A stretch of DNA of 64,000 nt from Escherichia phage vB_Eco_F27, in sequence record OP870146.1. One strand, 5' to 3'. Shown one piece after another: positions 20,250 through 44,747 of the stretch. The translations under genes and the position numbers were made by a program. The notes below the pieces were generated by a model. That model saw nothing but the letters and a program-made list of their open reading frames with translations. It searched no databases and was not told where the DNA came from. Position 1 is the first letter of the stretch; each line of letters opens with the position of its first letter.

Positions 20250-20277
20250 AATATTTTCCTCTCGTTAAGATAGAAAG

Positions 20278-20306
20278 ATTATACTCCAACCATCCTTGGT
20301 TGTACA
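20278..20306 (-). promoter_or_regulatory. promoter TGTACA-17-TATAAT for the 316-aa gene
   Basis: Minus strand aTGTACAaccaaggatggttggagTATAAT, ~30 nt upstream of ATG 20249. Confidence 0.5.
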
Positions 20307-21302
20307 TCATTCCTTAAGAAGTTTTACTACTTGAATAAGATTAGCTCGTTCTGTTTTATTTTTACCGTTTAAGCCTGCTAATCGTGAGATTTCATCGTCA
20401 GTCTGTTGAATAGTTACATTAAGTTCGTTAATCAAAGCTTCAAAGTATTTGATTTGCTCAGCATGTTTTGATTCAAATTTCTGAACCGGAATAACGTCTT
20501 GATTCAGTTCATCAATAAGGTCTTTAAGAGCATCTTCTTGGTTGATATCATATTCAACTTCTTTTATTTCTTCAACGAGCTCGTCTTTATATCTAACGTC
20601 TTTTAGTCCTGGAGCTGGTCCTAAAATCTCTTCTTTAAGAGTACAAACATATCCAATACGATATCCAGTGCCGTCTCGCTTGATATCAACTTCGTCGATA
20701 AATCCACAATGTTTAAGACCAGAGCCGATTAGGTTAAAATATCCTTGACGTCGTCCTTCAAACGTTACGCGAACTACTAAGACAGTTTTACCTGCAACCT
20801 TTTGAAGCTCACATTTATAAAAGTCAGTTGAACCTGAATAACGTGGATGAGTTTTAAAGTTCATCTGACGATCTAGGCCCATTTGTAAACGTGCTGATAC
20901 GGCCAGAAAACGTGTTTGGTTCTCGTTAAGATGAGCAACAATCTGTTTCAAAGGCATTTTACCATGTTCACGACCGAACAAATCAGTACGTCCTAAATTA
21001 CGCAGGATATTGTTAGAGTTAATCATCGACAGAACGTTAAGTTTATTCAGCGCGCTGAAGATTCCATCAGCCATTGATTTTCCATAACCTTTACACGCTT
21101 TAATAAGTGCTCGCGGCAGATTAGTATAGATTTCAGACGGCATATGAAAATCAAATTTACTAACCAGTAATTGATGAACTTGGATAGAAATTTGTTCATA
21201 ATTAAGTGCTCTGCGATCATTATGGTCTTTAAACCACACTTTAATCTGTGAAGCACATAAACCATTAATTTCATGTTTTACCGCATCAGATGTAATGCTC
21301 AT
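20307..21302 (-). CDS. hypothetical 331-aa protein with a C-terminal coiled coil
   Basis: No motif recognised. C-terminal heptad-like segment. Confidence 0.5.
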   Translation of the reverse strand: MSITSDAVKHEINGLCASQIKVWFKDHNDRRALNYEQISIQVHQLLVSKFDFHMPSEIYTNLPRALIKACKGYGKSMADGIFSALNKLNVLSMINSNNILRNLGRTDLFGREHGKMPLKQIVAHLNENQTRFLAVSARLQMGLDRQMNFKTHPRYSGSTDFYKCELQKVAGKTVLVVRVTFEGRRQGYFNLIGSGLKHCGFIDEVDIKRDGTGYRIGYVCTLKEEILGPAPGLKDVRYKDELVEEIKEVEYDINQEDALKDLIDELNQDVIPVQKFESKHAEQIKYFEALINELNVTIQQTDDEISRLAGLNGKNKTERANLIQVVKLLKE

Positions 21303-21364
21303 AACTATTTCCTCAGATTGAATTGGAACTCAAAACCATTATAACCCGTCCTTGGGTAAAGCGT

Positions 21365-21889
21365 TTATGCGTGAACCGTCTTTAAACGTTCTTCAAATTT
21401 CCGAAGAAGTGCTTGGCGTTCTGCTCGTTGTTCCATATAAGTTTTAATACGACCTGAAGTGAGGGCGTATTGTTCGTTTACCGATTCCTTCATAAAATCA
21501 GGAATCTCACGACAAGTTTTGATTTCGTCGAACTTGTCAATAACTGCTTGTTGTTCTGCAATCAGATTATTGTAGTATTCGATATCTGATTTAATGTTTT
21601 GGATATCAGACTCAGTAGGCATGTTACGTGCTTTACGTTTTGCCTGATATTCTGCGTTTGTAGCACGACTCCAGTGAAGAGTACGTTTTTTGTTAGTGTT
21701 TTTGTAGACTTCCACAATTCCAACTGAATCGATGATAACAATCCAATTCCAGCGAGATTTGAAAATCTGACCTCCGTCCACGGTAATCTCGTTACCATAA
21801 GCAACATCATTAAAGAACTTGCTTTGTGCTTCAGATTTAAATTTACCGTCGTTATAATTTACCAGGTTGAAAATATCTTTAGCGTTCAT
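21365..21889 (-). CDS. hypothetical
   Basis: 174 aa ORF. Early-promoter-like element at 21903..21950 upstream. Confidence 0.45.
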   Translation of the reverse strand: MNAKDIFNLVNYNDGKFKSEAQSKFFNDVAYGNEITVDGGQIFKSRWNWIVIIDSVGIVEVYKNTNKKRTLHWSRATNAEYQAKRKARNMPTESDIQNIKSDIEYYNNLIAEQQAVIDKFDEIKTCREIPDFMKESVNEQYALTSGRIKTYMEQRAERQALLRKFEERLKTVHA

Positions 21890-21947
21890 GTTTTACCTCC
21901 AGTAGTTGATAGGTCTATAATAACATAACCGTAGACCTTGTAAACAA

Positions 21948-22235
21948 CTAAAAGAAACTTTTTTCGGTATTTTTTCCACTGAACCAAACAGACTTCGGTA
22001 TTTTCTGTAATTTTTCAGATTTAAGTTTCTCTTCCCGTTCTTTCTTATATACACCCTTGTCGTACTGGAGCATCTCTATGGCATTCTTTTGCAAACGATC
22101 TAAGGTAATTAAGGCTTTAGTTTTTCCTTTCAAGGAAGAGTCCTGGCGAACCTCCTCGCTATATTGCATTGTAGAACTAACCATATGATGAGCATAGAGT
22201 TCGACTGCGGCTTTAATTTTTTGCATAAAATCCAT
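21948..22235 (-). CDS. hypothetical
   Basis: 95 aa ORF. Confidence 0.4.
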   Translation of the reverse strand: MDFMQKIKAAVELYAHHMVSSTMQYSEEVRQDSSLKGKTKALITLDRLQKNAIEMLQYDKGVYKKEREEKLKSEKLQKIPKSVWFSGKNTEKSFF

Positions 22236-22373
22236 AACATATCCTCTTTGATTTGTACATCATTATTTTTAAATATTTCTATGCCCTAAGTAGGTTCCTG
22301 GTGTCCTTCTTTGAGGTAAGCCATATGATTATTCATCTTTATGGCTTTTGTTACCTCAGAACTTCCTATAAGC

Positions 22374-23375
22374 TTATTTCAGTAAAGTTACTTCAGAGAT
22401 TTCCTCCCAACCATCTTTATCAGTTGAAATAAAATCTGCTACATAAAGAGCCGTACGTAATGATACATTGCGAAGACGAGATACGTTAGCCTTCATCCAG
22501 GACAATGCTTTATACGTTTCTGCATCCGTCAGACCACGTTTCTGCATCATGTCAGTAGATAATATTACATCTTCAACTCGAACCATAATCTCTTCATTAG
22601 AGTGTACTCCAAGGTCGAGATACACTGAACGAGATACTAAAGCTTGAAGGTGCGGAGCAAGTTTCGAACCGCGTTCTAACTCTTTATCGATATCAACGTT
22701 TGTAATGAAAACGATAGTACCTTCAAACTCAAATTCTTTATCAATACCCTTATCATCGAGATAAGATGACGCAGTGCTCCAACAAACTTTGCGTTTATCT
22801 CCGGTATCTAATGCTGCTTTAAGAAGGTTCAAGATGTCCATATCTGAGAATACATCAACGTCGTCGATTAAGAGAACGCTGTCTGCATCACGGTTGAGCC
22901 AAAGTTGTTCGTAAAGGCCAATACCAGAGATTTTACCATTAATGCTTTTGTATTTGATGAAACCATTATCATTAGCATTATTAAGTGCTTTATCCAGAGA
23001 ATACGTCTTACCAATACCGGCTGCACCTGAAATAATGAGTGAACGAATTTTGCCATCGATAATGCCATTCGTCATCATGTTCATTACTTTAAAGCGTTTG
23101 TTGATACGAGTTTTCATATCTTCAGTGCTTTCAACAACTGCAACTGGTGGTGTCTCAACTCCTTCCATTACGATGTCTGATTTGAAGACCCATACTCCAC
23201 GTTCAGAACCATCAATCATAACGAAAATTTTACCATCACCTAAGTGGGAACATTCAGGATTAAGCTTTGCCGGGAACCATGTCTTTGTGGCAACATAAGA
23301 ACCAGAGATTTCGTTATTACGATAGATACCTTTTTTGATTTGAACGTTGAACATTTTATTCTCCAATTTACTCAT
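22374..23375 (-). CDS. AAA+/P-loop ATPase of unknown function
   Basis: 333 aa. Walker A GAAGIGKT and Walker B VLLIDDVD in the central region, with a ~110-aa N-terminal extra domain. Confidence 0.65.
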   Translation of the reverse strand: MSKLENKMFNVQIKKGIYRNNEISGSYVATKTWFPAKLNPECSHLGDGKIFVMIDGSERGVWVFKSDIVMEGVETPPVAVVESTEDMKTRINKRFKVMNMMTNGIIDGKIRSLIISGAAGIGKTYSLDKALNNANDNGFIKYKSINGKISGIGLYEQLWLNRDADSVLLIDDVDVFSDMDILNLLKAALDTGDKRKVCWSTASSYLDDKGIDKEFEFEGTIVFITNVDIDKELERGSKLAPHLQALVSRSVYLDLGVHSNEEIMVRVEDVILSTDMMQKRGLTDAETYKALSWMKANVSRLRNVSLRTALYVADFISTDKDGWEEISEVTLLK

Positions 23376-23423
23376 TTCGTTTCGATAGGTCTATAATAAC
23401 ATGTTTAAAGCAAAAGTAAACAA

Positions 23424-24063: not shown

Positions 24064-25053
24064 TTATTTATAGTAAGAATTATGATTTTCGAGATAGACT
24101 TGTTCAAGGAAGTCATCCCAGAAACTCATATCTACTTTTTGTTGCATACCGTTCTTAGTGGCTTGTTCCGATGCTTGTTCAACTTGGTCAACGATATCTT
24201 CTAGGAATTCTTGTACAGTTTTAAACGTATGTTTACCAAGCTTAACATCGAGAATAAATGGAGCATCCTGAAGTGGGTAAACCAGGTCGCCGGTTTTGTA
24301 AATTTCCAATAGTTGAAGTCCACCACGACATGCATGACTCAATGCTTTCCAGTCAATACCTTCGTTGGCTTCTGCCTTACGAGCACGTTCACCATAGTTC
24401 TCTTCCAGTTTAACCAGGATGGCATTGAACTCTTTATTGGTTAACGTGTCTTGGAATTTACGGTCTAACAGATTATAGAATGTTTGCTTACCTGTTTTCT
24501 CGTTTTCGGTTTCAACCCACGAAGCAAATTCACCTACAGGCAGAACATTCTTCATATGTGATAAACGAATTACTGCACCATTATCAAAGTATTGTCCCCA
24601 TTCATTAGAACGTTTAAGGGCTTGACGAAGAACAGCCAGTCGAGAACCCTTGACACCGTATTTAGAAGCTTGCTTACGGACATACCCTAAATAAGATTTC
24701 ATGTTAGTAGTATAGAAACGAGACCTGTTGTCTTGAATATACTTCCACACGTCAGGCAAATCAGATTTAACTACTAGACTTGGTGGAGTGTGAAGCATAT
24801 CTAATGCGACGGTTTCACCATCCGCAGCTAGTTTAAAGAAATATTTGAGACTATACAACTCATGGTCCACGTCGTCTTTTGTGTTCTTAGAAGATGTGTT
24901 ATTCGTGTTCTTGCTCATGTGTTCTTTAACGTTACCGGTCAAGATATCACGAGCATGAGGGACATAAATTTCTTTAAAATCGACGTCAGATTCAGGAGTA
25001 GACGTTCCATAAAGGTGGCTACCAAAGTAGCCTTTCATAATTGTTTTCATCAT
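24064..25053 (-). CDS. Pol-beta superfamily nucleotidyltransferase with an alpha-helical C-terminal domain
   Basis: 329 aa. N-terminal YFGSHLYGTSTPESDVDF (GS-x9-[DE]h[DE]h), a later VALDML acidic motif, and a ~200-aa helical C-domain. The start ATGATGA overlaps the stop of the upstream TM protein. Confidence 0.6.
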   Translation of the reverse strand: MMKTIMKGYFGSHLYGTSTPESDVDFKEIYVPHARDILTGNVKEHMSKNTNNTSSKNTKDDVDHELYSLKYFFKLAADGETVALDMLHTPPSLVVKSDLPDVWKYIQDNRSRFYTTNMKSYLGYVRKQASKYGVKGSRLAVLRQALKRSNEWGQYFDNGAVIRLSHMKNVLPVGEFASWVETENEKTGKQTFYNLLDRKFQDTLTNKEFNAILVKLEENYGERARKAEANEGIDWKALSHACRGGLQLLEIYKTGDLVYPLQDAPFILDVKLGKHTFKTVQEFLEDIVDQVEQASEQATKNGMQQKVDMSFWDDFLEQVYLENHNSYYK

Positions 25054-25523
25054 TTAGCCTTATATTCAAGAGTAGGACAGACTTTTTCTTTACGAGCTTT
25101 AAGGTATTCGCCTATTAATGATTTCTTACGTTCAATAGGCTCAAGTCCATTTTTAATTCGTTCTTGGTTTTGTGCAATGAGCTCAATTTCTTTATAATAT
25201 TTTCTGTCGTTATATTTGTCTAACAACCAAGACGGACCAATTACCAACCCGGTAGCAATAAAAGCCATGACTGCTACAATTAAAACGCCTACACCAATTG
25301 AGGCTGGAACTAATGTCCATAGACTGCTAAAAACAAAGAATTTAGTTAAAATTTCCTGGCCAATGATTGTGACTGCTGCTAAAATCGCAAATCCAATAAT
25401 TGAAACAGCTAATACCGGGATTAGCGTTTTCCAAAAATAAGCACACAACGTTTTCGGACGATTCCATGTACTATTGAACGCGGCATAAATTTTAAAGTGC
25501 CAAGAGTTTTCATTGATAATCAT
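25050..25523 (-). CDS. multi-pass membrane protein, translationally coupled to the nucleotidyltransferase
   Basis: 157 aa. TM segments LIPVLAVSIIGFAILAAVTIIG, FVFSSLWTLVPASIGVGVLIVAVMAFIATGLVIG, then a charged cytoplasmic tail. Confidence 0.55.
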   Translation of the reverse strand: MIINENSWHFKIYAAFNSTWNRPKTLCAYFWKTLIPVLAVSIIGFAILAAVTIIGQEILTKFFVFSSLWTLVPASIGVGVLIVAVMAFIATGLVIGPSWLLDKYNDRKYYKEIELIAQNQERIKNGLEPIERKKSLIGEYLKARKEKVCPTLEYKAK

Positions 25524-25532
25524 AATAATTCC

Positions 25533-26075: not shown

Positions 26076-26343
26076 TTAAAGTTTCAACAAAATTCACTAA
26101 AGCATTCTGGCAAGCATCAACCTGATTTCTATAAAAATTAAATAAGATCCATCAATTTATTAGCTTGTTCACGAGTCATTTTACCATGCTCGCTTCAATA
26201 AGATTCATTACACCATTTACCATGTTATAGGTAAACATCGGATAATTGTATTGTACTACAACATAAGCGATAAGCAAAAGTTTCATTTTGTTCTCCATTT
26301 GTTTTGGTAGGACTACTATAACATAGTCCTACCAAGTTGTAAA

Positions 26344-26577
26344 CTACCGATTGTGTTTTAAATGTTGATAAAGCTCTTCAACTTGTTTAGGGTCCAAAAC
26401 AATTAAGTCATTTTCTTGACGAAGATAAATCCATCCCTTATCCCCAGGACCATTTTTACAAAACATCACCACCATATCATCATCTTCAGCGCTTTCAGGT
26501 AAAAGTTCAAGTACACCGTCTTCAGATTTTCCAGTATAATCGTAAAGCATAATATCCTCACATAATCTCGTTAACAT
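26344..26577 (-). CDS. hypothetical acidic small protein
   Basis: 77 aa ORF. Confidence 0.4.
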   Translation of the reverse strand: MLTRLCEDIMLYDYTGKSEDGVLELLPESAEDDDMVVMFCKNGPGDKGWIYLRQENDLIVLDPKQVEELYQHLKHNR

Positions 26578-26737
26578 ACATTTGCAATTCGGTGTGGGCG
26601 TCAGCCATCTTTTTCATAGCTCTGTTAATGTCGATGTCTCCATCTTCGCAACCATGAGCATTTTCCCAATCAGATACCGCATTAGCGTACTCTTCAATCA
26701 AAAACATTAACTTAGAAATTTTTTCTTTACGTGACAT
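26558..26737 (-). CDS. hypothetical
   Basis: The 82-aa ORF is trimmed to MSRKEKISKL... (ATG 26737, GAGGAG SD). The promoter at 26765..26793 lies inside the untrimmed ORF. Confidence 0.4.
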   Translation of the reverse strand: MSRKEKISKLMFLIEEYANAVSDWENAHGCEDGDIDINRAMKKMADAHTELQMYVNEIM

Positions 26738-26764
26738 AACGTTCTCCTCTAGTAAGTAAGGTTT

Positions 26765-26793
26765 ACTATAACACAACCTGAGGAGAAGTAAAC
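26765..26793 (-). promoter_or_regulatory. T4-type early promoter GTTTAC-17-TATAGT
   Basis: Minus strand GTTTACttctcctcaggttgtgtTATAGT. Confidence 0.5.
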
Positions 26794-26803
26794 TGATAGA
26801 TGC

Positions 26804-29930: not shown

Positions 29931-30389
29931 CTAGATTTTAATCACTGCTTTAGAAGCTTTTCCTGGTAGTCGTTTACTGTTAATAATAGCCATTCTGCAT
30001 TGAAGAGTCTTCATTTTGAATGCTGGATTTTCGCGACAAACTGTAAGTCCTAACCAAAGATTTCCGTCAGTTATTTCTAAACGGCCTGGACGATACTCGA
30101 CACCTTCGACAAAATCTTCATCAACATCTGGACGGGCCGGCATTGATAAAAATTCTGCAACTTCTTTAACATGATTTTTTACTTTATGAAATAATTCAAA
30201 AACGTAATTCTCATCTATTTCTCTCTGGATGGCACGATCTAAGAGATGTTGAGAATACTTGATATGAAAGCCTGGTAGTCCAAGAGACTTTGCAGCATCT
30301 TTTATACTGGCATTTATTTTGCGGAACTCCGTTTCAAAGATTCGACGGAGTTTATTACGGCGGATAAAAACGTCTGAATTGATAGTCAT
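29931..30389 (-). CDS. regB: RegB site-specific endoribonuclease
   Basis: 152 aa, MTINSDVFIRRNKLRR...YSQHLLDRAIQREIDE...CRMAIINSKRLPGKASKAVIKI. Near-identical to T4 RegB. Confidence 0.9.
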   Translation of the reverse strand: MTINSDVFIRRNKLRRIFETEFRKINASIKDAAKSLGLPGFHIKYSQHLLDRAIQREIDENYVFELFHKVKNHVKEVAEFLSMPARPDVDEDFVEGVEYRPGRLEITDGNLWLGLTVCRENPAFKMKTLQCRMAIINSKRLPGKASKAVIKI

Positions 30390-30417
30390 TTTGATTTCTC
30401 CTCTAGTTGACAGGTCT

Positions 30418-30446
30418 ATAGTAACACAACTAGAGGAGAAGTAAAC
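30418..30446 (-). promoter_or_regulatory. T4-type early promoter GTTTAC-17-TACTAT upstream of regB
   Basis: The -10 is embedded between the 9-bp inverted repeats ctctagttg/caactagag. Confidence 0.5.
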
Positions 30447-32352: not shown

Positions 32353-32462
32353 TTAGTTTCTCTTTTAGGTTGGGCCATTCCGTGGCGCATGAATTGTCCA
32401 TTTCTGTATTTACCCCTCCAAGTAATTATGAATATACTATCACAATTCTAGGAGATGTAAAC

Positions 32463-32861
32463 TTATTTGTAGGTTTTCATCCAATTCTTGAACAAAGCCG
32501 CGACGTCTTTCTCTTTAACGTTCAGTTTAATGTCCAACATTTTACCGCCCGCTGCTCTCGTTTGACGAATCTTAGCAGTACCGGTTTCACCATTCCACTC
32601 AACATAATATTGCCCAGTGTTCATAGCGATACCGTTGCCAAAGTCTTCGTTATTAGAAGTAGTGAATGCCAACTTCATGGTCTTAGAGACACGGGCCGGC
32701 ATGCCTGTCTGAAGGGCATTACGAACGCGAATAACCTGAGGAGTGGCCTGGGTCAGGTTCTCATTCAGTTCTTCGGTGAACTCTTCAGATTCAAACATCG
32801 CCAAAAGTTCTTTAGATGCAGGAATTACATTCTCTGCGATAAATTCTTTATATGTTTTCAT
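32463..32861 (-). CDS. capsid internal protein (CTS-bearing, IPIII/IPII-like)
   Basis: N-terminus MKTYKEFIAE, a T4 capsid-targeting sequence. 132 aa. Confidence 0.6.
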   Translation of the reverse strand: MKTYKEFIAENVIPASKELLAMFESEEFTEELNENLTQATPQVIRVRNALQTGMPARVSKTMKLAFTTSNNEDFGNGIAMNTGQYYVEWNGETGTAKIRQTRAAGGKMLDIKLNVKEKDVAALFKNWMKTYK

Positions 32862-32925
32862 TTTTTGTTTCCTTGTTTGTTTTGATAGAGTAATTATACC
32901 ATATTAATACTTAAGCGTAAACCGT

Positions 32926-33192: not shown

Positions 33193-33296
33193 TTAGTAAA
33201 TTGATTTACCATAGTATTTGTACCAAGTCGGACGTTGAGCAATTTTTTCATCTAAGCGTGCTTGATTTATCGCAATGGACGCTTCGGACGGGTCAT
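33193..33296 (-). pseudogene. denV: denV (endonuclease V, pyrimidine-dimer glycosylase) remnant
   Basis: An intact promoter element, GGAGG SD and ATG ACC CGT (MTR, the T4 DenV start) are followed by a stop after 9 codons. A different frame encodes ..[34 protein letters not shown], matching the T4 DenV C-terminus. The track's 65-aa ORF 33193..33390 is an artifact that runs through the promoter. Confidence 0.55.
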
Positions 33297-33355
33297 AATT
33301 TCCTCCAAGTAGTTGATGAATGTATAGTATCAAAACCCTTGGAGGAAGTAAACAA

Positions 33356-36016: not shown

Positions 36017-36322
36017 TTATTTTCCTCGACATTCTTTAATGAAATTTTCTAGATTGGTAGATTCAATAGCTTTTTTACGAGCTTCAACATGTTCTTCTTC
36101 AGACAATTTACATTTATAATTGACCCAGACATTATGGTCGAAACTAGTCGTGGCATATAATAACAAAGCTCCGACGAATAATAAAAACGGTGATAAGAAT
36201 ATACAACCAGGCACACCATCCATACTGTAAGCCTTTTGTAATACTGCAACAGAAAGAGTTGCGTAAAAAAGTGATGCAAATATTGTTAAAAGACCAATTC
36301 GGTTGGTTTCGCCTAATTTCAT
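36017..36322 (-). CDS. small membrane protein
   Basis: 101 aa, two TM segments. Confidence 0.45.
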   Translation of the reverse strand: MKLGETNRIGLLTIFASLFYATLSVAVLQKAYSMDGVPGCIFLSPFLLFVGALLLYATTSFDHNVWVNYKCKLSEEEHVEARKKAIESTNLENFIKECRGK

Positions 36323-36351
36323 AATATTCTCCTCATGTTTTAATAGGACTA

Positions 36352-36382
36352 CTATAACATAGTCCTATAATTGTGTAAACAG
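36352..36382 (-). promoter_or_regulatory. T4-type early promoter GTTTAC-18-TATAGT
   Basis: Minus strand TGTTTACAcaattATAGGACTAtgtTATAGTAGTCCTAT. The -10 lies inside a perfect 9-bp inverted repeat. Confidence 0.55.
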
Positions 36383-37377: not shown

Positions 37378-37629
37378 TTAAATTTCACGACATGCGATAT
37401 TATATTCGTCCCAGAGGTCATCGTGTGAAGCCTCTACCAATGGAACGATTGTACCGTTTATGTCTTCATTATAAGGGCAAATTGTACAGTGCGCATCTTC
37501 GAATCGGATGCCTTTGTGTTCAGATTTTTTATAACGCATATCGAATATCTTTGCAAACTTTTCACGAGTAATGGTTTTAGCAACCACTTTGGTTCCGATA
37601 CTTTCGTAATAAATCATTGTGGACTCCAT
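37378..37629 (-). CDS. Cys-containing small protein
   Basis: 83 aa with CTICPYNED...C. Confidence 0.4.
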   Translation of the reverse strand: MESTMIYYESIGTKVVAKTITREKFAKIFDMRYKKSEHKGIRFEDAHCTICPYNEDINGTIVPLVEASHDDLWDEYNIACREI

Positions 37630-37645
37630 TTAATTTGATAGGACT

Positions 37646-37675
37646 ACTATAACATAGCCCTATCTTGTTGTAAAC
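37646..37675 (-). promoter_or_regulatory. T4-type early promoter GTTTAC-18-TATAGT
   Basis: Plus text gataggactactataacatagccctatcttgttgtaaac. Confidence 0.5.
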
Positions 37676-38168: not shown

Positions 38169-38474
38169 TTAGCACAACGCAGAAGACGAAACCCAAGCAC
38201 CTTCAGTAATAACGTAACCATTACCTTCACGCTTAACATCGCCACCATTATTTTCAATTTCATCTTTCATCCACTGGGATACGATTTCACCCTTAGGATA
38301 ATAAGTACGACCACTACCATAATCACCTACAGAAAATGATACGGCATATTGGTCTGCGATCTTTGTTGCTTCTTCTTCGATACGTTCAGCTTGATTCAGA
38401 AGTTTATAAATTGCATCTGAAGCGGATTTGGCATCATTAAACTCTGGTACTTTAATTTCAATAATCTTACTCAT
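38169..38474 (-). CDS. paralog 3 of the GxWVxSSxxC-terminus family
   Basis: 101 aa ending ...EGAWVSSSALC. Confidence 0.5.
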   Translation of the reverse strand: MSKIIEIKVPEFNDAKSASDAIYKLLNQAERIEEEATKIADQYAVSFSVGDYGSGRTYYPKGEIVSQWMKDEIENNGGDVKREGNGYVITEGAWVSSSALC

Positions 38475-38830
38475 TTTCTACATTCCTTAATAAAGTTTTC
38501 GATTGTTTCATTTTCACGTCTAGCTAGGAGTTCATTATAACTAATCGTTTGAGAAGCGTAAACCTTTTTATTTTTCTTGTTGTGGTTTATAAAATCGTAG
38601 TAAAAATAGACTACAGTACAAAATGATGCGATGGATGCAAAGGCTTGGGTATACCGTAAGTCCTGCCATTGGTCTGTGAATCCACCAGTGTTCCCTATAA
38701 ATCCTAACACAACGCCGTCAATAAGAAATCCAACTAATCCAAAGGCAAATCCCATGCCAATACTCATAATAAAAATTAGAATGTTCTCACCAAGAGAAGG
38801 CCATACGGTTAAGAGTTGAGGCTTTTGCAT
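38471..38830 (-). CDS. membrane protein
   Basis: 119 aa, two or three TM segments. Confidence 0.45.
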   Translation of the reverse strand: MQKPQLLTVWPSLGENILIFIMSIGMGFAFGLVGFLIDGVVLGFIGNTGGFTDQWQDLRYTQAFASIASFCTVVYFYYDFINHNKKNKKVYASQTISYNELLARRENETIENFIKECRK

Positions 38831-39234
38831 CTTATTTCCTTAACGAATTCCATAGCTTCTTCATATTCATACTTTTTAACAGCTTCATCATACTGAGCTT
38901 GGGCTTTTGCGCACTGAACTTTCCATTCGCGTACTCGAGCTCTATAATGACGGCCTTGGTGCCAATATCCTGCCCAATTAATAGGCATTAATAAAAATGG
39001 CACAATAAACGGCCCGGCTATAATAAGTAAAAACACTGCATCAGACGATATAACTTCACTAGAATCTAAAACAGCTCCTATAATCATAAAGATTAAAAAT
39101 GCTAAAGCTAAAATAGGGCCAAATAGTACTTCATTTGGGATTAATTTACGTTTGTATTCGTATGCCCAGGGCTTAATTGGCATGTACAGGGTTGGCTTTG
39201 ACATATTCTCTACATTCCATAATAAATTGCTCAA
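38809..39234 (-). CDS. membrane protein
   Basis: 141 aa, TM hairpin then a basic helical tail. Confidence 0.45.
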   Translation of the reverse strand: MSNLLWNVENMSKPTLYMPIKPWAYEYKRKLIPNEVLFGPILALAFLIFMIIGAVLDSSEVISSDAVFLLIIAGPFIVPFLLMPINWAGYWHQGRHYRARVREWKVQCAKAQAQYDEAVKKYEYEEAMEFVKEIRCKSLNS

Positions 39235-39796
39235 GGATTAAATTGTTAGTGAAATTAGGACTAACAACCATAGTTTCATAAAGCGCATCAATAGCACTTA
39301 AAGCATCAACTCTTTTAAGCAAAGGCTTGCCTTCATACATAGTTTCAGAATCGATGATTAACGTAAAGTAATATTTTTTATTATCGACTAGAACTTCCGT
39401 ATCGATATAAAACATATTAGACCTCAGAAGCTTATCTCTAAAACCATAATAATCTTCAGAGCGTTCGCTGATATATTCCCATTCAGTGTTTAAACAACAA
39501 ACAGACCATGTAGGAGCAACGAAATCGGTGAATCTAATATCATGGTCTGCAACTAGTTTAGCAATAGCTCCGATATCATGAATCATAATACCTGGGGCTA
39601 ATAAAGATTTTCTGCTATGGCTAGCCGTTTTCTCAGTAGTCTCATAAGAAGACGACCAGTACCATTTACGTCCAGTTGCAACATATCGTAATGAATCAAC
39701 TAAAGATGTAGGTGGATTTACCTTATCTCGGAACTCTTCGAACATTGAGTCAATATCATTATTTTGGTTTCGCATGTTAACTCCTTTATTATCCAA
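39173..39796 (-). CDS. hypothetical 207-aa protein
   Basis: No motif recognised. Confidence 0.45.
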   Translation of the reverse strand: MDNKGVNMRNQNNDIDSMFEEFRDKVNPPTSLVDSLRYVATGRKWYWSSSYETTEKTASHSRKSLLAPGIMIHDIGAIAKLVADHDIRFTDFVAPTWSVCCLNTEWEYISERSEDYYGFRDKLLRSNMFYIDTEVLVDNKKYYFTLIIDSETMYEGKPLLKRVDALSAIDALYETMVVSPNFTNNLILEQFIMECREYVKANPVHAN

Positions 39797-39824
39797 AAGG
39801 AGGACCGGAGTCCTCCGTATTATT

Positions 39825-40418
39825 TTATTTCAAAGAGTTAATATATTCTTGTACATCAGCAGAAGTGGTTTCGACGCCGGCTGGAGTGCCATTGAACGTT
39901 TCAACACGAGTCAGAGTGTCTTCGATATCAACCTTAGTCAGTGCAGCGATTTCAATTACATCATCGGCCGTAGAGATACCAAGGGCATTGGCTGCTCGAG
40001 TTTCACGAATGTATTCGAGTTTGATTGCCAGGTTCTGACGAGCATCGTCAAGTTCAACCACCTTACGAGCAATTTCAATTCGCATAGCGGCATACCCGTC
40101 AGCTTTTGTATTAAGTTGTTCGGCAGTTCGACGATACAGAAGACCAAGCTTAGCATGCATGGTAACATCTTGTCCTTCAGCCAGGAGCTTACGAATTTCA
40201 CGTTCCTTAGAAGCGGCTTGCTTGTTCTTTTCATTAACAAGTTCGCGAATACGTTTTTCTTCATTAATAGATTTAACAGAAGCCGTTTTTAGTTCTTTGA
40301 TTTGGGTAATCAACTTATCTGCAGCTGCGTTATACTGTTCTTCGACAGTCAGATTTTTAGCCATAGCAGTACCAAGTTTAGTGCGGATGAATTCAACAAG
40401 TTTCTTCAGTGTGTTCAT
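39825..40418 (-). CDS. coiled-coil protein, possibly PspA/IM30-like
   Basis: Trimmed to [10 protein letters not shown]... (ATG 40418, AAAGG SD), 197 aa. All-helical heptad sequence with stretches resembling PspA (e.g. [34 protein letters not shown]). The similarity is weak. Confidence 0.4.
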
Positions 40419-40459
40419 ATTATTACCTTTCAATTGGTGGTTTATTATCCAACGAGAGC

Positions 40460-40488
40460 ATTATACTCTGCTCTCAAGAGATTGTAAA
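40460..40488 (-). promoter_or_regulatory. promoter TTTACA-17-TATAAT (copy B of the duplicated ~50-bp element)
   Basis: 47/49 identical to 11195..11245. Confidence 0.55.
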
Positions 40489-40716
40489 TTATTTTTTAAT
40501 CAAATTGACATAAAACTCGGCGTCTTCCGGGTGCATGCCTTCGCAGTATTCTTCAACCATGAACTTCTTAACAGCTTCATAAGGACCGCTCAGATTAAGC
40601 TCAGTTGTCCAGAACTTGGAATCTTGGACCGAATCGATACGAACTTCAGGGTGACGGTTGCGAATAACTTCTTCAGTGTATTCATAATCAACGACATCAA
40701 TACTAACTGTAGCCAT
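40489..40716 (-). CDS. hypothetical acidic protein
   Basis: 75 aa ORF. Confidence 0.4.
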   Translation of the reverse strand: MATVSIDVVDYEYTEEVIRNRHPEVRIDSVQDSKFWTTELNLSGPYEAVKKFMVEEYCEGMHPEDAEFYVNLIKK

Positions 40717-40769
40717 TTTGTTTCTCCTCTTGATTTGATGTGATTACTATAACATAAACGTACTTAGAT

Positions 40770-40928
40770 GTAAATTATTTCAACGTCACCTTTAGCGGCT
40801 TTATAACCTTCAGCCCAAGATACAACAGAGTTTTTATCCGAGGATTCAAATTCAGGCATTGGACTTTCACCAATATTCACACAGTATGTTTCTTCATTTT
40901 CATCGAACCAAATAATTAAAGTAGTCAT
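40770..40928 (-). CDS. small hypothetical protein (52 aa, below the track cutoff)
   Basis: ATG 40928 (MTTLIIWFDENEETYCV...) preceded by GGAG. Confidence 0.3.
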
Positions 40929-40996
40929 TTTGTTTACTCCTCTGTAGTTGATAAGTCTATAGTATCACCATCCTTGGTGCTTGTACATCATTATTT

Positions 40997-41302
40997 TTAA
41001 TTTTTCCAACTTAACAACTTGTAGTGTCCTTCATTCATACGTGGTTTATCCCAAGAAATACTAATATATGATTCGCTGTCAATAGAAGTCGCCGGGTTTT
41101 TCTCTACCGTAAGACCTTCACTTTCCAGCCATTCAATAGTATTTGCGCATAAATCAGAAGAACACCTAATCGGAAACCGGCAAGATTTTTCACCTTTAGC
41201 TGCAGTGTTATACATCTTTTCTAAAATACGCTTTTGCACGTTTTTAAAAATAGTTTCAGCAGATTCTTCAGATTTTTTATTCAGTTCAGTGTAAAGACTC
41301 AT
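40997..41302 (-). CDS. hypothetical
   Basis: 101 aa ORF, GAGGAGAAT SD. Confidence 0.45.
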   Translation of the reverse strand: MSLYTELNKKSEESAETIFKNVQKRILEKMYNTAAKGEKSCRFPIRCSSDLCANTIEWLESEGLTVEKNPATSIDSESYISISWDKPRMNEGHYKLLSWKN

Positions 41303-41329
41303 AATATTCTCCTCATGTTTTGATAGGTC

Positions 41330-41358
41330 TATAGTAACACATCTAGGGAAGAAGTAAA
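41330..41358 (-). promoter_or_regulatory. T4-type early promoter GTTTAC-17-TACTAT
   Basis: Plus text tgataggtctatagtaacacatctagggaagaagtaaac. Confidence 0.5.
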
Positions 41359-41389
41359 CAACTTTTTCAGTAAGTTATAAACCCCCTAA

Positions 41390-41405
41390 TGGGGACCGAA
41401 GTCCC
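41390..41405 (-). other. GGGGAC-UUCG-GUCCCC hairpin 3' of the 208-aa internal-protein gene
   Basis: Same motif family as 2338 and 23729. No U-tract follows on the minus strand, so likely an RNA-stability or processing hairpin. Confidence 0.45.
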
Positions 41406-41411
41406 CATTCT

Positions 41412-42038
41412 TTACTTACGAGTTTTTGCATATTGAGCAGCGTCAGCAGCCAAACGACCTGCCTGACGAAGTTTTTCTTTAATCGCATCGTGAAGTGGTT
41501 GAGTGTACTTCAAACCTTCGATAGTCAAATAAAGACGATAAAGGTCCGGGGTATCAAGGTTGTTGATATGTTGGCCATTACGAAGAATATTGAATTCACG
41601 AACGAGTGAAGATGTATCGGATTCAATATCACGAACAAGCGAAGATAGTTGTTTATATTTTTTTTCCAGACTAGAAGTATCAAACTTAAGAGCAGGAGCT
41701 TTAGGAGTTGCTTTTACTTCAGGCTTAGGCTCAGGTTTTGCTATTGCTTTAGGGGTCGCAGGTTTAGGAATGGAAGGAGTAGGTTTTACTTTAGGCGAAC
41801 CCGATTTAGCAGAAACACCACCACTAACAATATCTTTGAATGCTTTAGAAGCTCTGTAATATTCTTTTTGGCTGGAAGTGTCGATACCGTACATGGCTTG
41901 AACGTTTTTGAAAAACTCTGTACTAGTTTTTGTACCAGAAATAGCATCGTAAGCAGCTTGCCATTTCTCTTTTGTCATACGTACACCGGCTTCGGTGATT
42001 ACTTCCGTTTCGGCTAAAAATTCATTAAAAGTATACAT
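41412..42038 (-). CDS. capsid internal protein (CTS-bearing) with a Pro/Lys-rich repeat region
   Basis: N-terminus MYTFNEFLAETEV, a CTS variant. Central SGSPKVKPTPSIPKPATPKAIAKPEPKPEVKATPKAPALK. 208 aa. Confidence 0.5.
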   Translation of the reverse strand: MYTFNEFLAETEVITEAGVRMTKEKWQAAYDAISGTKTSTEFFKNVQAMYGIDTSSQKEYYRASKAFKDIVSGGVSAKSGSPKVKPTPSIPKPATPKAIAKPEPKPEVKATPKAPALKFDTSSLEKKYKQLSSLVRDIESDTSSLVREFNILRNGQHINNLDTPDLYRLYLTIEGLKYTQPLHDAIKEKLRQAGRLAADAAQYAKTRK

Positions 42039-42082
42039 CGATGGTCCTTAGAAAGTAGGTTTATTGTTTACTATATTTATAC

Positions 42083-42111
42083 AAAAAAGCCCCAACCTTT
42101 CGGAAGGGGCT
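42083..42111 (-). terminator. rho-independent terminator ending the tRNA/stable-RNA transcript
   Basis: Identical to the 26804..26832 hairpin, followed by U6 on the minus strand. Confidence 0.65.
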
Positions 42112-42119
42112 ATATACCT

Positions 42120-42414
42120 TGTCGGGGTTTCCACCTACTAAGGCAAGTGTTTGTACGAAACGCCGGGATTCGAACCCGGTTATTGAGTAGTTGACGCTAC
42201 TCAATATTTTTAAAAGGCCATATCTCGACCATATCCGAACGTTCCGTCAAAAACGCTACTCGGCTTACGGCAAAGATATTTCCTCGAATCGATAATTCGG
42301 TGCGCCGTTTCTGCTGTGATGTAAGGGGATATTAACAAATCGTAAAGATTTATTAAGACCAGTCCTTACTCAGGGAACATCAGTCCGACGACTTACCGGT
42401 AGCGACCCGGCTTC
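42120..42414 (-). ncRNA. candidate small stable RNA(s) / tRNA-like remnant (T4 species 1/2 RNA position)
   Basis: No ORF. Minus strand carries a perfect T-arm CCGGG-TTCGAAT-CCCGG (42161..42180) with a matching acceptor-like pairing CGGAACG/CGTTTCG. The 26 nt preceding it form a perfect 10-bp hairpin instead of an anticodon arm. Confidence 0.3.
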
Positions 42415-42759
42415 TTATTTTGGCATATCATCAATTTGCTCTCGACGCCGACGCCATAGATTAATCGCTTCATAAACACATTCTGCGTTTGGTATATGAC
42501 GGCAATAATATAATGATTCGCGTTTCTGGAATCGATGTTGCAATGGGATTTCGTTTAAAAGGTCTTTACGGTCAAAGTATTCAAAACTAGTTAACCCGGA
42601 ACGGTTTTTAATGAACTTCCAATGACCAAATTCATTTTGAACATAGATGTAATCTGCATGTTGGTATAACAAATTAATCAATCGGTCTGAAATAACTGTA
42701 TCATGTTCGTTAAAATAAAACGTTAAATCATGAACTACTAAGTAAACATTACCTTTCAT
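42415..42759 (-). CDS. hypothetical 114-aa protein immediately 3' of tRNA-Arg
   Basis: The track ORF 42415..42807 overlaps tRNA-Arg. It is trimmed to MKGNVYLVVHDL... (ATG 42759, GAGGAAA SD). Confidence 0.45.
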   Translation of the reverse strand: MKGNVYLVVHDLTFYFNEHDTVISDRLINLLYQHADYIYVQNEFGHWKFIKNRSGLTSFEYFDRKDLLNEIPLQHRFQKRESLYYCRHIPNAECVYEAINLWRRRREQIDDMPK

Positions 42760-42777
42760 ATTTTCCTCACTTAAAAT

Positions 42778-42854
<77 letters not shown>

Positions 42855-42954
42855 ATGATGCGGCTTTGGGTGTTTCAGTGTTACTCGTTTGTAGGTTCTA
42901 CTTTTAACCCTTATTCGAACAACTTACCTACCTAAGAGCGTACTCACCGCGAAT

Positions 42955-43029
42955 TGGTGGCCCTGGCTGGTTTCGATCCAGCTACCTATCAGTTATGAGC
43001 TGACAGCTCTCCCATTGAGCTACAGGGCC
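42955..43029 (-). tRNA. tRNA with CAU anticodon (Met, or Ile2 if lysidine-modified as in T4), CCA encoded
   Basis: Hand-folded. Acceptor GGCCCTG/CAGGGCC, D-stem GCTC/GAGC, anticodon stem GTCAG/CTGAT with loop CUCAUAA, T-arm GCTGG-ATCGAAA-CCAGC, discriminator A, then CCA. Confidence 0.8.
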
Positions 43030-43091
43030 TAAATAAATTTCTATTATGAAAGGCCCTTGAGGGAGCACCTTTGGTAATAGAGGGTAGATTA

Positions 43092-43118
43092 ATAATAACA
43101 CATAATTCTTAAAGCAAA
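43092..43118 (-). promoter_or_regulatory. candidate MotA-dependent middle promoter for the tRNA transcript
   Basis: Minus strand tTTGCTTtA (MotA box), 12 nt, then TATTAT, about 60 nt upstream of the first tRNA. Confidence 0.4.
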
Positions 43119-43125
43119 TTACGTT

Positions 43126-43416
43126 TTACCGTACCATATTAATGTAGTTATATTCAATGCAACGTAATTTCAAAGGGTTCTTGAAAATATCATATTCAAG
43201 AGGGCCTTTTTCTGTTTCAATAAAGAAATCAAAGTTAACTGTGTTAAATTTAACGTCTTCACAGAGTAATTTAACTTGTGAAGATGAACGGTCGATATAA
43301 ACCTTTTCAACCTCAAAGATAGTCAGAATACCGTAGTCATTAACCAGTGCTTTAGCTGCACGTTGGTCGCTTTCATATCCGTTCTCAATGGACGATACTT
43401 TAGCATAAAGAATCAT
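43126..43416 (-). CDS. hypothetical
   Basis: 96 aa ORF. Confidence 0.4.
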   Translation of the reverse strand: MILYAKVSSIENGYESDQRAAKALVNDYGILTIFEVEKVYIDRSSSQVKLLCEDVKFNTVNFDFFIETEKGPLEYDIFKNPLKLRCIEYNYINMVR

Positions 43417-43793
43417 GAATGTTCCACCATTTCAAAGGTATGAGCATCAACAATATGATACCAGTCAAAATTTTCTTCCGCGTTTTTATAAATTTCGCGA
43501 AGAGCTTCAACAGTTTTTCCTGTAGCAACAAGATCGTCAATACCACCAAGAGGATAACAGTAATAACCAGCAAACAGAAGGAAATTAATAGTTTCTGTAG
43601 GTTCTGGATGCAGAACACCGTTATCGTCTACCACTTCAAAGAAAGTGTAAGAAGGAGTACAAGTTTTAATCCAAGCCCATGCTTGAGCTGCTGAATCAAA
43701 TGGTCTGCGTATCAAACGACAATCAGGGTCTTTAGAAGGATTTGCTTCAAAATCCGCATATACGTGATATTTCATTTTACTCACCTTTTGCAA
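43413..43793 (-). CDS. hypothetical
   Basis: 126 aa ORF with ATGA coupling to the downstream gene. Confidence 0.45.
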   Translation of the reverse strand: MQKVSKMKYHVYADFEANPSKDPDCRLIRRPFDSAAQAWAWIKTCTPSYTFFEVVDDNGVLHPEPTETINFLLFAGYYCYPLGGIDDLVATGKTVEALREIYKNAEENFDWYHIVDAHTFEMVEHS

Positions 43794-43983
43794 TTTTATC
43801 CATAACGATAGCGATTAAGCCGATTAGAAATGCTACTACCAATGAGATAGAGTTTTCAGTTGTTGTCAGTAGTCCACAAATGAATCCTACAAACATCGAA
43901 AAACTAAAAGCCATTGAAGCAATTACTACAGCAACATTACGAATCAGTTCAGCGCGTTTCATTTTATTTCTCCATTTACTCAT
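43777..43983 (-). CDS. small membrane protein
   Basis: 68 aa, two TM helices. Confidence 0.4.
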   Translation of the reverse strand: MSKWRNKMKRAELIRNVAVVIASMAFSFSMFVGFICGLLTTTENSISLVVAFLIGLIAIVMDKIAKGE

Positions 43984-43999
43984 TTGTTTTGATAGGACT

Positions 44000-44029
44000 A
44001 CTATAACATATCCCTATAGGCTTGTATAC
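44000..44029 (-). promoter_or_regulatory. early promoter GTATAC-18-TATAGT
   Basis: Plus text gataggactactataacatatccctataggcttgtatac. Confidence 0.45.
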
Positions 44030-44031
44030 CT

Positions 44032-44295
44032 TTATTTCAAATATATTGCGTATTTTTTATAGCCACCAGGCTCGTGTCGAAGACCTTTATCATTCGCAAA
44101 ACGTTGAATGTTATTGAACTGATTTTCATCAAGTTCGGATGTGTCAAATATGAAAAAGTTTCGTTTGTTGCCAAGCGTGATATGCGGAGTTAAGTCAATG
44201 TTATACAAATTAAGAATATCAGCAATAACCTGATTGACCGCTTTGTTAATTTTCACACCAGACGATTCTGAGATGAATTCGTTGAAAGTTTTCAT
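44032..44295 (-). CDS. capsid internal protein (CTS-bearing)
   Basis: Trimmed to MKTFNEFISESSGV... (ATG ~44295). Confidence 0.5.
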   Translation of the reverse strand: MKTFNEFISESSGVKINKAVNQVIADILNLYNIDLTPHITLGNKRNFFIFDTSELDENQFNNIQRFANDKGLRHEPGGYKKYAIYLK

Positions 44296-44326
44296 TTTAG
44301 GTTCCATTTGGTTGTTTTGATAGGAC

Positions 44327-44358
44327 TACTATAACATAATCCTATCGTGTTGTAAATT
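44327..44358 (-). promoter_or_regulatory. early promoter ATTTAC-20-TATAGT
   Basis: Plus text gataggactactataacataatcctatcgtgttgtaaat. Confidence 0.45.
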
Positions 44359-44668
44359 ATTTTATGCCTTTAGAAGAAATGGTGTTTTGGCGTTTGGTCC
44401 CTGTTTGTGAAAAATCGTGGTTATCGATTTGGTCGACTCGCATAACACCAAATGCAGATTTAATTTTAGCCTTTGAACCTTTTTTGATACTAATTATCAT
44501 ATAAGTATCATTTTTCTTATATTCGAAATTTGTTACTTCAACGCCTTGATTAGAAATTGACTTAATAATAGCATTAGCGTATTCATCATCTAACGGACCG
44601 GTGGTGTTAATAATAAAATTTTTATCGGCTTTAGTAGCTTCAGCGATAAACTCTTGATAAGTTTTCAT
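44357..44668 (-). CDS. capsid internal protein (CTS-bearing, IPI position)
   Basis: Trimmed to MKTYQEFIAEATKADKNF... (ATG 44668), the canonical T4 CTS. Confidence 0.55.
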   Translation of the reverse strand: MKTYQEFIAEATKADKNFIINTTGPLDDEYANAIIKSISNQGVEVTNFEYKKNDTYMIISIKKGSKAKIKSAFGVMRVDQIDNHDFSQTGTKRQNTISSKGIK

Positions 44669-44705
44669 TTGTTTTTTCCGTTTGGTTTGAGATTTGATAG
44701 GATGA

Positions 44706-44734
44706 TAGTAACACACCATCATCCTTATGTAAAC
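44706..44734 (-). promoter_or_regulatory. T4-type early promoter GTTTAC-17-TACTAT
   Basis: Plus text gataggatgatagtaacacaccatcatccttatgtaaac. The -10 is flanked by aggatgat/atcatcct. Confidence 0.5.
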
Positions 44735-44747
44735 TGTTTTGTGAAAA

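Follow-up and report, generated by a model that had tools for sequence, protein, structure and literature searches.

Why should the early promoters of a T4-type phage carry inverted repeats around their -10 elements, with arms that differ in sequence between copies and are complementary within each copy? The question is raised by positions 20275-44740 of a 64,000-nucleotide stretch of the Escherichia phage vB_Eco_F27 (sequence record OP870146.1; this whole stretch is called the window below), in which elements of the early-promoter type recur on the minus strand. We consider it rather probable that these elements are cassettes of the promoter-early stem-loop (PeSL) type, whose hairpins would act in RNA reading through from upstream promoters; one class of the hairpins (class II) would gate the Shine-Dalgarno (SD) sequence of the next gene, and the other (class I) would mark a boundary.

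Between positions 30000 and 40000, the window is 96-98% identical to coliphages of the RB69 group (mogra, RB69 and others), and its source is, judging from this identity, an RB69-like T4-type phage (Mosigvirus). In the RB69 annotation, the range in question corresponds to nrdC-tk-vs-regB-denV-e-tRNA-ipI-57B on the minus strand, an early region that is classically hyperplastic in T4-type genomes. The motif GTTTAC-N16-19-TAYART has nine exact matches in the window, on the minus strand only, where 0.24 would be expected. When the promoter form was relaxed to [AG]TTTAC-N17/18-TAnnnT and an SD sequence plus ATG were then required downstream, 21 minus-strand promoters were obtained with SD and ATG in 21/21, and 16 of them are within 20275-44740, in agreement with the more than 15 elements counted there in an earlier reading of the letters alone (the sequence-only reading). 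Besides these 21, there are two degenerate copies with GTATAC (44024-44029) and ATGTAC (20302-20307) in place of the -35 hexamer. The promoters are named here by the coordinate of the 5' end of -35, e.g., 30446 for the regB promoter. At a constant offset of 14 nt, they coincide with the early promoters that Nolan et al. (2006, supplementary table; PMC1524935) predicted for RB69, and the consensus is also that of the T4 early promoter class; in that paper, the GTTTAC -35, the extended -10 and the UP-like A-tract are described as linear motifs with no mention of dyad symmetry or hairpins. The A+T content is 68% in the 30 nt upstream of -35 as compared with 63% in the window, and A occupies 45% of positions -50 to -36 versus 32%. 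The stop codon of the upstream gene is usually 2-7 nt before -35 or overlaps its first base (TAA/TAG + TTTAC), and the intergenic space is hence almost wholly promoter and leader.

Is the complementarity beyond chance? The spacer of each promoter was paired with its own downstream segment and, for comparison, with the downstream segments of other promoters. In the window, the cognate duplexes average -11.4 kcal/mol against -7.15 +/- 0.6 kcal/mol for deranged pairs, the observed value being reached in 0 of 20000 derangements, and the longest perfect stems average 6.7 (cognate) and 4.7 (swapped). When promoter-leaders were folded against their dinucleotide shuffles, furthermore, 11 of the 20 gave z from -2.7 to -4.9, two were marginal (26793, -1.53; 21945, -0.37), and seven showed nothing. 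The inverted repeats, for which the sequence-only reading had proposed shuffled controls, are therefore more than chance would give. All six repeats that it quoted are present at their positions, and several are longer than quoted (13 pairs at 26344 and 14 at 30446); aggtcta/tagacct at 21905-21935 is not significant by itself (z -0.37).

The cognate-pair signal was also found in RB69 (n = 17 promoters), in T4 (-11.7 versus -6.8 +/- 0.5 deranged; n = 17 promoters) and in a Dhakavirus (-12.7 versus -8.65 +/- 0.54; n = 14 promoters). In a pooled set of 275 unique promoter sequences from 44 loci, a stem-score threshold was passed by 42% of the cognate pairs, as compared with 4.9-5.4% of the non-cognate pairs, 0.8% with shuffled spacers and 7.6% with reversed spacers. 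In the same set, no signal was seen for pairing of the 30 nt upstream of -35 with the spacer (1.1% versus 0.8%) or with the downstream segment (2.5% versus 1.9%), a scan outside which self-contained hairpins upstream of -35 fall. The pairing signal is thus confined to spacer and downstream segment, and the hairpin specifically straddles the -10 element and the start site. Also, a hairpin is found in 46% of the promoters directly following the end of a same-strand open reading frame (ORF) and in 7% of the motif matches with no ORF end nearby; this enrichment behind upstream ORFs fits a role in read-through RNA, while the ORF-less group may include false promoters.

In terms of layout, about half of the promoters carry a hairpin with its 5' arm in the spacer between -35 and -10 and its 3' arm behind -10. 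The sequence-only reading had placed the -10 hexamer in the loop of the hairpin; the stem does bracket -10, but the hexamer is not wholly in the loop because its last 1-2 nt usually belong to the 3' arm. Two classes can be distinguished. In class I, a stem of 8-13 bp encloses the extended -10 in a loop of 3-8 nt, and the hexamer's final one or two bases open the 3' arm. Seven promoters (44734, 44357, 40489, 37675, 36380, 26344 and 11241) belong to this class, and 21945 and 11666 do so weakly; in the seven, the SD is accessible, and pairing of the SD/start codon was not found. The class I features are as follows, with arm positions and with minimum free energy (MFE) and z from folding of the promoter-leaders against dinucleotide shuffles.

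44666..44734, minus strand: early promoter with class I hairpin, preceding a gene of internal-protein type (MKTYQEFIAE...); -35 at 44729-44734, -10 TACTAT at 44705-44710, arms AGGATGATG (44717-44725) and TATCATCCT (44699-44707), ATG at 44666-44668; MFE -15.7, z -3.04; SD open in the modelled read-through RNA.
44293..44357, minus strand: early promoter with class I hairpin containing one U·G pair; -35 ATTTAC at 44352-44357, -10 TATAGT at 44328-44333, arms at 44336-44346 and 44319-44329; z -3.51.
40416..40489, minus strand: early promoter in one of the two copies of a duplicated cassette, with class I hairpin TGAGAGCA/TGCTCTC(G); -35 at 40484-40489, -10 TATAAT at 40460-40465, arms within 40469-40482 and 40447-40460; z -3.00.
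37615..37675, minus strand: early promoter with class I hairpin containing one G·U pair; arms GATAGGGCTAT (37654-37664) and GTAGTCCTATC (37637-37647); z -3.88.
36320..36380, minus strand: early promoter with class I hairpin, quoted earlier as 36338-36363; arms ATAGGACTAT (36359-36368) and GTAGTCCTAT (36343-36352), -10 TATAGT at 36351-36356; z -3.21.
26284..26344, minus strand: early promoter with class I hairpin of 13 pairs, quoted earlier as 26288-26316; arms TTGGTAGGACTAT (26323-26335) and GTAGTCCTACCAA (26304-26316); z -4.72.
21887..21945, minus strand: early promoter with weak class I hairpin, quoted earlier as 21905-21935; arms at 21930-21938 and 21911-21919; z -0.37.
11573..11666, minus strand: early promoter with a long leader and an imperfect helix bracketing -10; arms at 11646-11660 and 11625-11638; cognate dG -8.1.
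11172..11241, minus strand: early promoter in the other copy of this duplicated cassette, with class I hairpin TGAGAGCA/TGCTCTCA; arms at 11221-11228 and 11205-11212; z -3.41.

In class II, a 5' arm such as TTCTCCTC, located right after -35, pairs with GAGGAGAA, which is the SD of the next gene, and the loops are 17-35 nt long. The members are 30446 (regB), 33353, 26793 and 12368, and probably 32462.

33294..33353, minus strand: early promoter with class II (anti-SD) hairpin; TTCCTCCAAG (33338-33347) pairs with CTTGGAGGAA (33300-33309); z -4.10; the start codon opens a frame of 9 codons only (MTRPKRPLR), and this promoter-leader precedes denV in relatives.
32399..32462, minus strand: early promoter with nested helices, the outer one being CUCC:GGAG; arms at 32440-32455 and 32415-32431; MFE -20.0, z -4.08.
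30387..30446, minus strand: regB early promoter with class II hairpin, an extension of the repeat quoted earlier as 30408-30436; TTCTCCTCTAGTTG (30427-30440) pairs with CAACTAGAGGAGAA (30396-30409) in 14 perfect pairs running into the GGAG SD, with -10 at 30418-30423; z -4.93.
26735..26793, minus strand: early promoter with class II hairpin, outer TTCTCCTC/GAGGAGAA and inner AGGTT/AACCT; z -1.53 (marginal).
12309..12368, minus strand: early promoter with class II hairpin, outside the range of the sequence-only reading; UCCUC:GAGGA and inner TAGATG/CATCTA; z -2.70.

At least 45 distinct arm sequences of class I and at least 27 of class II were counted, which excludes a single operator, and palindromes dictated by the promoter consensus were rejected on this diversity together with the non-cognate controls.

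What would these hairpins do to the RNA? The start site was taken as the A after CCT, the seventh nucleotide after -10, from the T4 consensus and from the preference for C at -3 to -1 reported by Nolan et al. (PMC1524935), which corresponds to the CC in the ...CCTA 3' arm here. As the 5' arm is always upstream of this site, the own transcript of a promoter could not fold the hairpin, and only read-through RNA could. Indeed, the modelled probability that the SD is unpaired in read-through RNA is 0.00 for 30446, 33353, 26793 and 12368, while in the own transcript it is 0.40-0.45 for 30446, 0.45-0.47 for 26793 and 0.64-0.66 for 12368. In the pooled set, 29% of the cognate read-through RNAs have a probability below 0.05, as compared with 1.1% of the own transcripts and 2.9% of chimeric read-through RNAs, in which the leader carries another promoter. 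With gating defined as a probability below 0.1 in read-through RNA and above 0.3 in the own transcript, 67 of 274 leaders (about a quarter) are gated, as compared with 7 in the chimeric control. Where the 3' arm is the downstream SD (30446, 33353, 26793, 12368 and probably 32462), translational sequestration rather than processing is the most direct reading.

Orthologous promoters allow the pairing to be followed through sequence change. The regB stem is TTCTCCTCTAGTTG/CAACTAGAGGAGAA in the window, TTTTCCTCTTGACTG/CAGTTAAGAGGAGAA with two G·U pairs in T4, and ATCTCCTGTAG/CTACAGGAGAT in CLB_P2. In a RegB-anchored scan of IMG/VR, which gave 39 loci, 26 of the 29 distinct regB leaders pair the SD with the spacer through about ten different stems, with a cognate energy of -17.7 versus -11.5 for non-cognate pairs. 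Of six tk matches shortlisted across genera, two were used besides, the IMG/VR loci giving the wider sample. A MAFFT alignment of the regB leaders was dropped for pair counting, as the covarying arms were out of register, and the counts were anchored instead on the SD/anti-SD core; several columns then showed three or four Watson-Crick pair types (GC, CG, TA, AT), e.g., GC 8, CG 6 and TA 6. The overall pairing of 0.72 was reached neither in 1000 partner shuffles (maximum 0.69) nor in any slid register. In the regB leaders of two distant relatives, loci L038 and L039 (about 9930-10020), the spacer has no anti-SD, and GTTAGTTCA is complementary to regB codons 2-4 (TGAACTAAC); this may be chance or another way of masking the initiation region.

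Covariation is seen also at the denV, nrdC.8 and mobD.2a-like promoters. The denV orthologues have the anti-SD in the spacer or in the discriminator, always upstream of the inferred start site. In the denV leaders of L020, L023, L030, L032 and L036-L039, it lies in the six bases after -10 (TATGAT GTCCTCC ... GGAGGAC), and the spacer-based stem score registers such leaders as hairpin-less. At the mobD.2a-like promoter (26344), the 13-pair TAGGACT stem is replaced in T4 with an unrelated 14-bp stem, AAGTTGACAAGATT/AATCTTGTCAACT, and in the T4 orthologue of 21945, GTTCCTCTG pairs with CGGAGGAAC, the SD included. The duplicated cassette (ATTTAC AA[A/T]CTCTTGAGAGCAGAG TATAAT GCTCTC..TTGGATAATAAA) stands at 11172-11241 and 40416-40489, 29 kb apart and before unrelated genes, and related but compensated cassettes occupy both positions in a Dhakavirus (L003, 34503 and 7877). 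Its stem, GAGAGC/GCTCTC in the window, is GGGACC/GGTCCC in the Dhakavirus orthologue of 11241, with two double compensatory changes, and GAGGAC/GTCCTC in that of 40489. Pairing is thus kept by compensatory changes in T4, the Dhakavirus and 39 IMG/VR contigs, which argues for selection on pairing and not on sequence.

Is the constraint on RNA or on DNA? With a stem finder in which G·T and A·C are scored alike, 74 distinct stems contain 32 internal G·T and 10 internal A·C mismatches (class I, 22:7; class II, 10:3), as compared with 37:33 in non-cognate control stems. The hairpin-bearing leaders, furthermore, fold better as the sense strand (mean MFE -17.3 versus -15.3 kcal/mol for the antisense strand; 87 versus 28 cases, p = 8e-10), while sense and antisense folding do not differ in hairpin-less leaders. 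A cruciform or the operator of a dimeric protein should tolerate neither mismatch type better than the other; it is therefore the sense strand that is constrained, and RNA is the simplest reading.

The sequence-only reading had argued, from arms that change together, for selection on a hairpin rather than on primary sequence, and both the copy-specific complementarity and the compensatory changes at orthologous promoters bear this out. Its placing of the structure in sense read-through transcripts is likewise borne out by the 32:10 wobble count and by the greater stability of the sense strand in 87 of 115 cases, whereas its alternative of cruciform or single-stranded DNA structures is disfavoured by the same bias of G·T over A·C and by the sense-strand folding. 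A selected hairpin acting in read-through RNA therefore stands from that interpretation, but the pairing with the SD and the literature on PeSL cassettes had been missed. Its further proposals, RNase processing sites, mRNA-stability elements or attenuators, are candidate roles for the short hairpins bracketing -10.

These cassettes were described in RB49/phi1 (Arbiol et al. 2010, PMC2839356) and then also in PST/T4 and nt-1/KVP40 (Comeau et al. 2014, PMC4122927); the elements of the T-even internal protein (IP) locus are, as summarised in a paper citing Repoila et al. (1994), based on T4 early promoters, and their stems are weaker, AT-rich and variable in size. In the two PeSL papers, the stem-loop is commonly between -35 and -10 or overlaps -10, although a figure legend on PST places it wholly upstream of -35, and both terminator/attenuator and recombination roles are discussed, while translation or ribosomes are never mentioned and the RB69 group is not treated. 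When an RB49 stem-loop was placed between a promoter and lacZ, expression was cut about as much as by rrnB T1, and mini-circles were reported in RB49 and phi1 (PMC2839356). The window elements show every computationally testable PeSL feature: an early promoter at 17-18 bp spacing, a stem-loop in or next to the promoter, an A/T tract with SD/ATG, and a hyperplastic location with indels. Both sets are composite, in that an A/T-rich tract leads into an early promoter with its stem-loop, behind which come an SD and an ATG, and both are found in hyperplastic early regions beside small ORFs and IP genes and are tied to insertions, deletions and replacements. The window stems are, however, AT-richer and copy-specific, whereas those of RB49 are GGGG/CCCC; a large subset in the window pairs with the SD, and sense RNA is indicated by both the covariation and the wobble counts.

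For class II, a second precedent is found in T4 e, soc, 49, I-TevI/II/III and segB and in Aeh1 mobE, where a hairpin masks the site of ribosome binding and is combined with an internal promoter: a long transcript from upstream pairs the SD and/or AUG, and the shorter transcript of the internal promoter, which has no 5' arm, is translated (PMC3014915, PMC2988022). The class II geometry is exactly this, with the SD paired in the long RNA and the 5' arm absent from the own transcript. The known sequestered genes were "all late genes" in a 2010 review, served by late (gp55) and sometimes middle promoters, whereas the window promoters are early sigma-70 promoters (GTTTAC/TATAAT) and the genes are early ones (regB, denV, nrdC.8 and others). 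With the internal promoter and the genes both early, the predicted effect is early-only and not late-only translation, and class II looks like an early-promoter variant of the known sequestration mechanism. A review of post-transcriptional control in T4 ascribes the tight regulation of regB to shut-off of the promoter and to self-cleavage at the SD, with no mention of a hairpin. Gating of ribosome sites at early promoters thus appears to be undescribed, although an earlier description is possible in older T4 literature outside our search.

The tie to recombination can be seen in the comparison with RB69, to which the window aligns in 13 collinear blocks; 7 of the 24 block ends are within 30 nt of a promoter-leader, as compared with 1.9 expected (p = 0.003), and a breakpoint of homology at 41316 falls in the leader of promoter 41359. 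In RB69, nrdC.5 is flanked by two copies of the 27-nt sequence ACAACCAAGGATGGTTGGAGTATAAT (L001, about 2033-2154 and 3058-3112). The window has no nrdC.5 and retains a single hybrid cassette copy at 20278-20307 with a degenerate -35 (ATGTAC), and the alignment blocks overlap at 20278-20304. As this junction shows, nrdC.5 was lost through recombination between two promoter copies. Another region, 44010-44269, near small genes starting with MKT, is replaced relative to RB69.

20247..20307, minus strand: chimeric degenerate promoter (ATGTAC ... TATAAT) left by the nrdC.5 deletion, a hybrid as compared with the two RB69 copies.

A mechanism consistent with these results would be as follows. A compact sigma-70 early promoter would have evolved complementarity at its free positions, i.e., the spacer between -35 and -10 and the stretch just after -10. 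RNA from an upstream promoter would read through the cassette and fold in vivo. In class II, for which pairing and covariation are observed, translation of the next gene would be blocked on the read-through RNA and open on the own transcript, and the gene would be restricted to the period in which its own early promoter fires; early promoters would here follow the logic known from the T4 genes e, soc, 49 and I-TevI. Class I may provide a boundary in the read-through RNA by attenuating or pausing the polymerase and/or by blocking an exonuclease after cuts by RegB or RNase E, which is the weakest step; as no T-run follows the class I hairpins, any attenuation would be of a non-canonical kind. 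In the DNA itself, the repeated cassettes would serve as short homologies for gene gain, loss and replacement, as seen in one deletion.

Several points weigh against this mechanism. About a third of the window promoters have no hairpin. At promoter 33353, the SD is mostly paired even in the modelled own transcript, with a probability of only 0.10 of being unpaired. A ribosome at the upstream stop, 2-7 nt before -35, might partly open the class II stems and make them coupling devices rather than blocks. The start sites are inferred and not mapped; a literature search for transcription start site, Term-seq and dRNA-seq data on T4/RB69 gave nothing usable, and no transcript, structure-probing or translation data for F27 or for these T4 sites were found in the literature searched. 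Finally, the pooled sequences are phylogenetically related, and their p-values are optimistic.

Among the alternatives, a purely transcriptional role, in which PeSL-style termination or attenuation of incoming transcription insulates the gene and the pairing with the SD is incidental, is unlikely in our view. The hairpins share with intrinsic terminators a stable stem-loop in an intergenic region right after a stop codon, and their location at gene boundaries as well as the lacZ effect in RB49, comparable with that of rrnB T1, would suit such a role; that effect, nonetheless, cannot tell termination from translational or stability effects. No T-run follows the promoter hairpins in the window, the sequence there being ATCAAAAC-like, and a terminator consensus scan of 25001-45000 found 17 terminator-like sites, none of them at a promoter hairpin. 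Intrinsic termination was rejected on the absence of T-runs, while canonical terminator-like sites exist elsewhere (39799-39816). The stems are often AU-rich, furthermore, with loops of 6-35 nt containing -10, and loops of 17-35 nt, as in class II, are not typical of terminators; what is conserved as the pairing partner in 26/29 regB and most denV leaders is the SD core.

DNA structure has a low probability as the target of selection, either as cruciforms or single-strand hairpins aiding promoter opening or as hot spots of recombination or nicking. In a sigma-70 open complex, positions -22 to -14 stay duplex, and the 5' arm is in this part; although -10 is in or beside the loop, therefore, opening would leave that arm paired with its complementary strand. 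Both strands must pair in a cruciform, but G·T is three times commoner than A·C and the sense strand folds better, and in class II the arms, separated by up to 35 nt, are aimed at a functional RNA motif. Breakpoints between relatives are enriched at the cassettes, and mini-circles are known from RB49 and phi1; nevertheless, recombination needs only shared promoter sequence, and the nrdC.5 junction is in a 27-nt identity.

Translational coupling, in which the ribosome finishing the upstream gene melts the anti-SD hairpin and downstream translation depends on upstream translation, also has a low probability. The helicase of the ribosome reaches to about +11 from the P site. Even with upstream stops only 2-7 nt before -35 and with class II 5' arms that begin at the first spacer bases, which speak for coupling, the 5' arm starts 5-9 nt past the stop codon, at or beyond this reach, and class I arms are still further away. 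The absence of any function, with palindromes arising from the promoter consensus, cassette duplication or template-switch correction of quasi-palindromes (or, as a variant, serving as operators of dimeric repressors), is very improbable despite TAGGACT...AGTCCTA being common to several copies and one cassette being duplicated (40489, 11241), because cognate pairs give 42% as compared with 1-8% for non-cognate pairs, for shuffled spacers and for pairs of other segments, orthologues keep pairing through changes on both sides, and the strand asymmetry is unexpected from template-switch correction or protein binding. Both DNA structure and lack of function are thus disfavoured by the strand asymmetry and the controls.

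The remaining promoters of the window and a second degenerate copy are listed below.

43981..44029, minus strand: degenerate copy, GTATAC AAGCCTATAGGGATATGT TATAGT AGTCCTATC, with -10 at 44000-44005 and an imperfect TAGGGAT/AGTCCTA hairpin.
41300..41359, minus strand: early promoter with no significant hairpin (weak TTCTTCC/GGAGAA); z +0.32.
40714..40775, minus strand: early promoter without hairpin; z +1.87.
38472..38563, minus strand: early-promoter match within coding sequence, without hairpin and with no upstream ORF end near; z +0.57.
32859..32922, minus strand: early promoter without hairpin, upstream of an internal-protein-like gene; z -0.46.
23352..23421, minus strand: early promoter without hairpin; z +0.86.
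19267..19327, minus strand: early promoter without hairpin, overlapping the end of the upstream ORF, whose stop is within the promoter; z +0.05.
17841..17922, minus strand: early promoter without straddling hairpin; z -0.15.

Three small genes, starting MKTYQEFIAE, MKTFNEFISE and MKTYKEFIAE (44666-44722, 44293-44307 and 32859-32861), each have their own early promoter, and their starts resemble the capsid-targeting leader of T4 internal proteins. Rfam covariance models run over the window matched two tRNAs only, and the promoter hairpins match no family; the tRNAs are tRNA-Arg(UCU) at 42778-42854 and tRNA-Met(CAU) at 42955-43029, on the minus strand as in RB69, and their flanks, at 87-94% identity and with indels, rank among those parts of the window that diverge most from RB69. 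At 39799-39816, a perfect palindrome, GGAGGACCGGAGTCCTCC, T-rich on both sides, was called a terminator on both strands and is, within the early region, the strongest candidate for a genuine intrinsic terminator.

What PeSL-type cassettes do beyond recombination is poorly defined, and the way in which early gene expression is ended in T4 has been described as not completely understood. Three results lead from a descriptive motif to a specific hypothesis: selection at the RNA level, a 5' arm always upstream of the start site, and the aiming of many hairpins, in many genera, at the SD of the conserved early genes regB and denV. The hypothesis is that translation depends on which promoter made the RNA. 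We tentatively extend this to the Tevenvirinae, in which roughly a quarter of the early promoters may be embedded in anti-SD hairpins, so that a gene would be translated only from the RNA of its own promoter, with the short hairpins bracketing -10 as an insulating counterpart for genes that tolerate translation from read-through RNA. If this is true, the gated genes would no longer be translated once the early promoters are shut off, at 2-3 min after infection, because read-through RNA, whether from upstream or from middle promoters, would be silent for them. This would constitute a cis-encoded, post-transcriptional route to the abrupt stop of early proteins, notably of the RegB nuclease, and a mirror of the late-only gating of lysozyme. 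In the annotation of T4-like genomes, furthermore, dyad symmetry around -10 would mark real early promoters and likely recombination joints.

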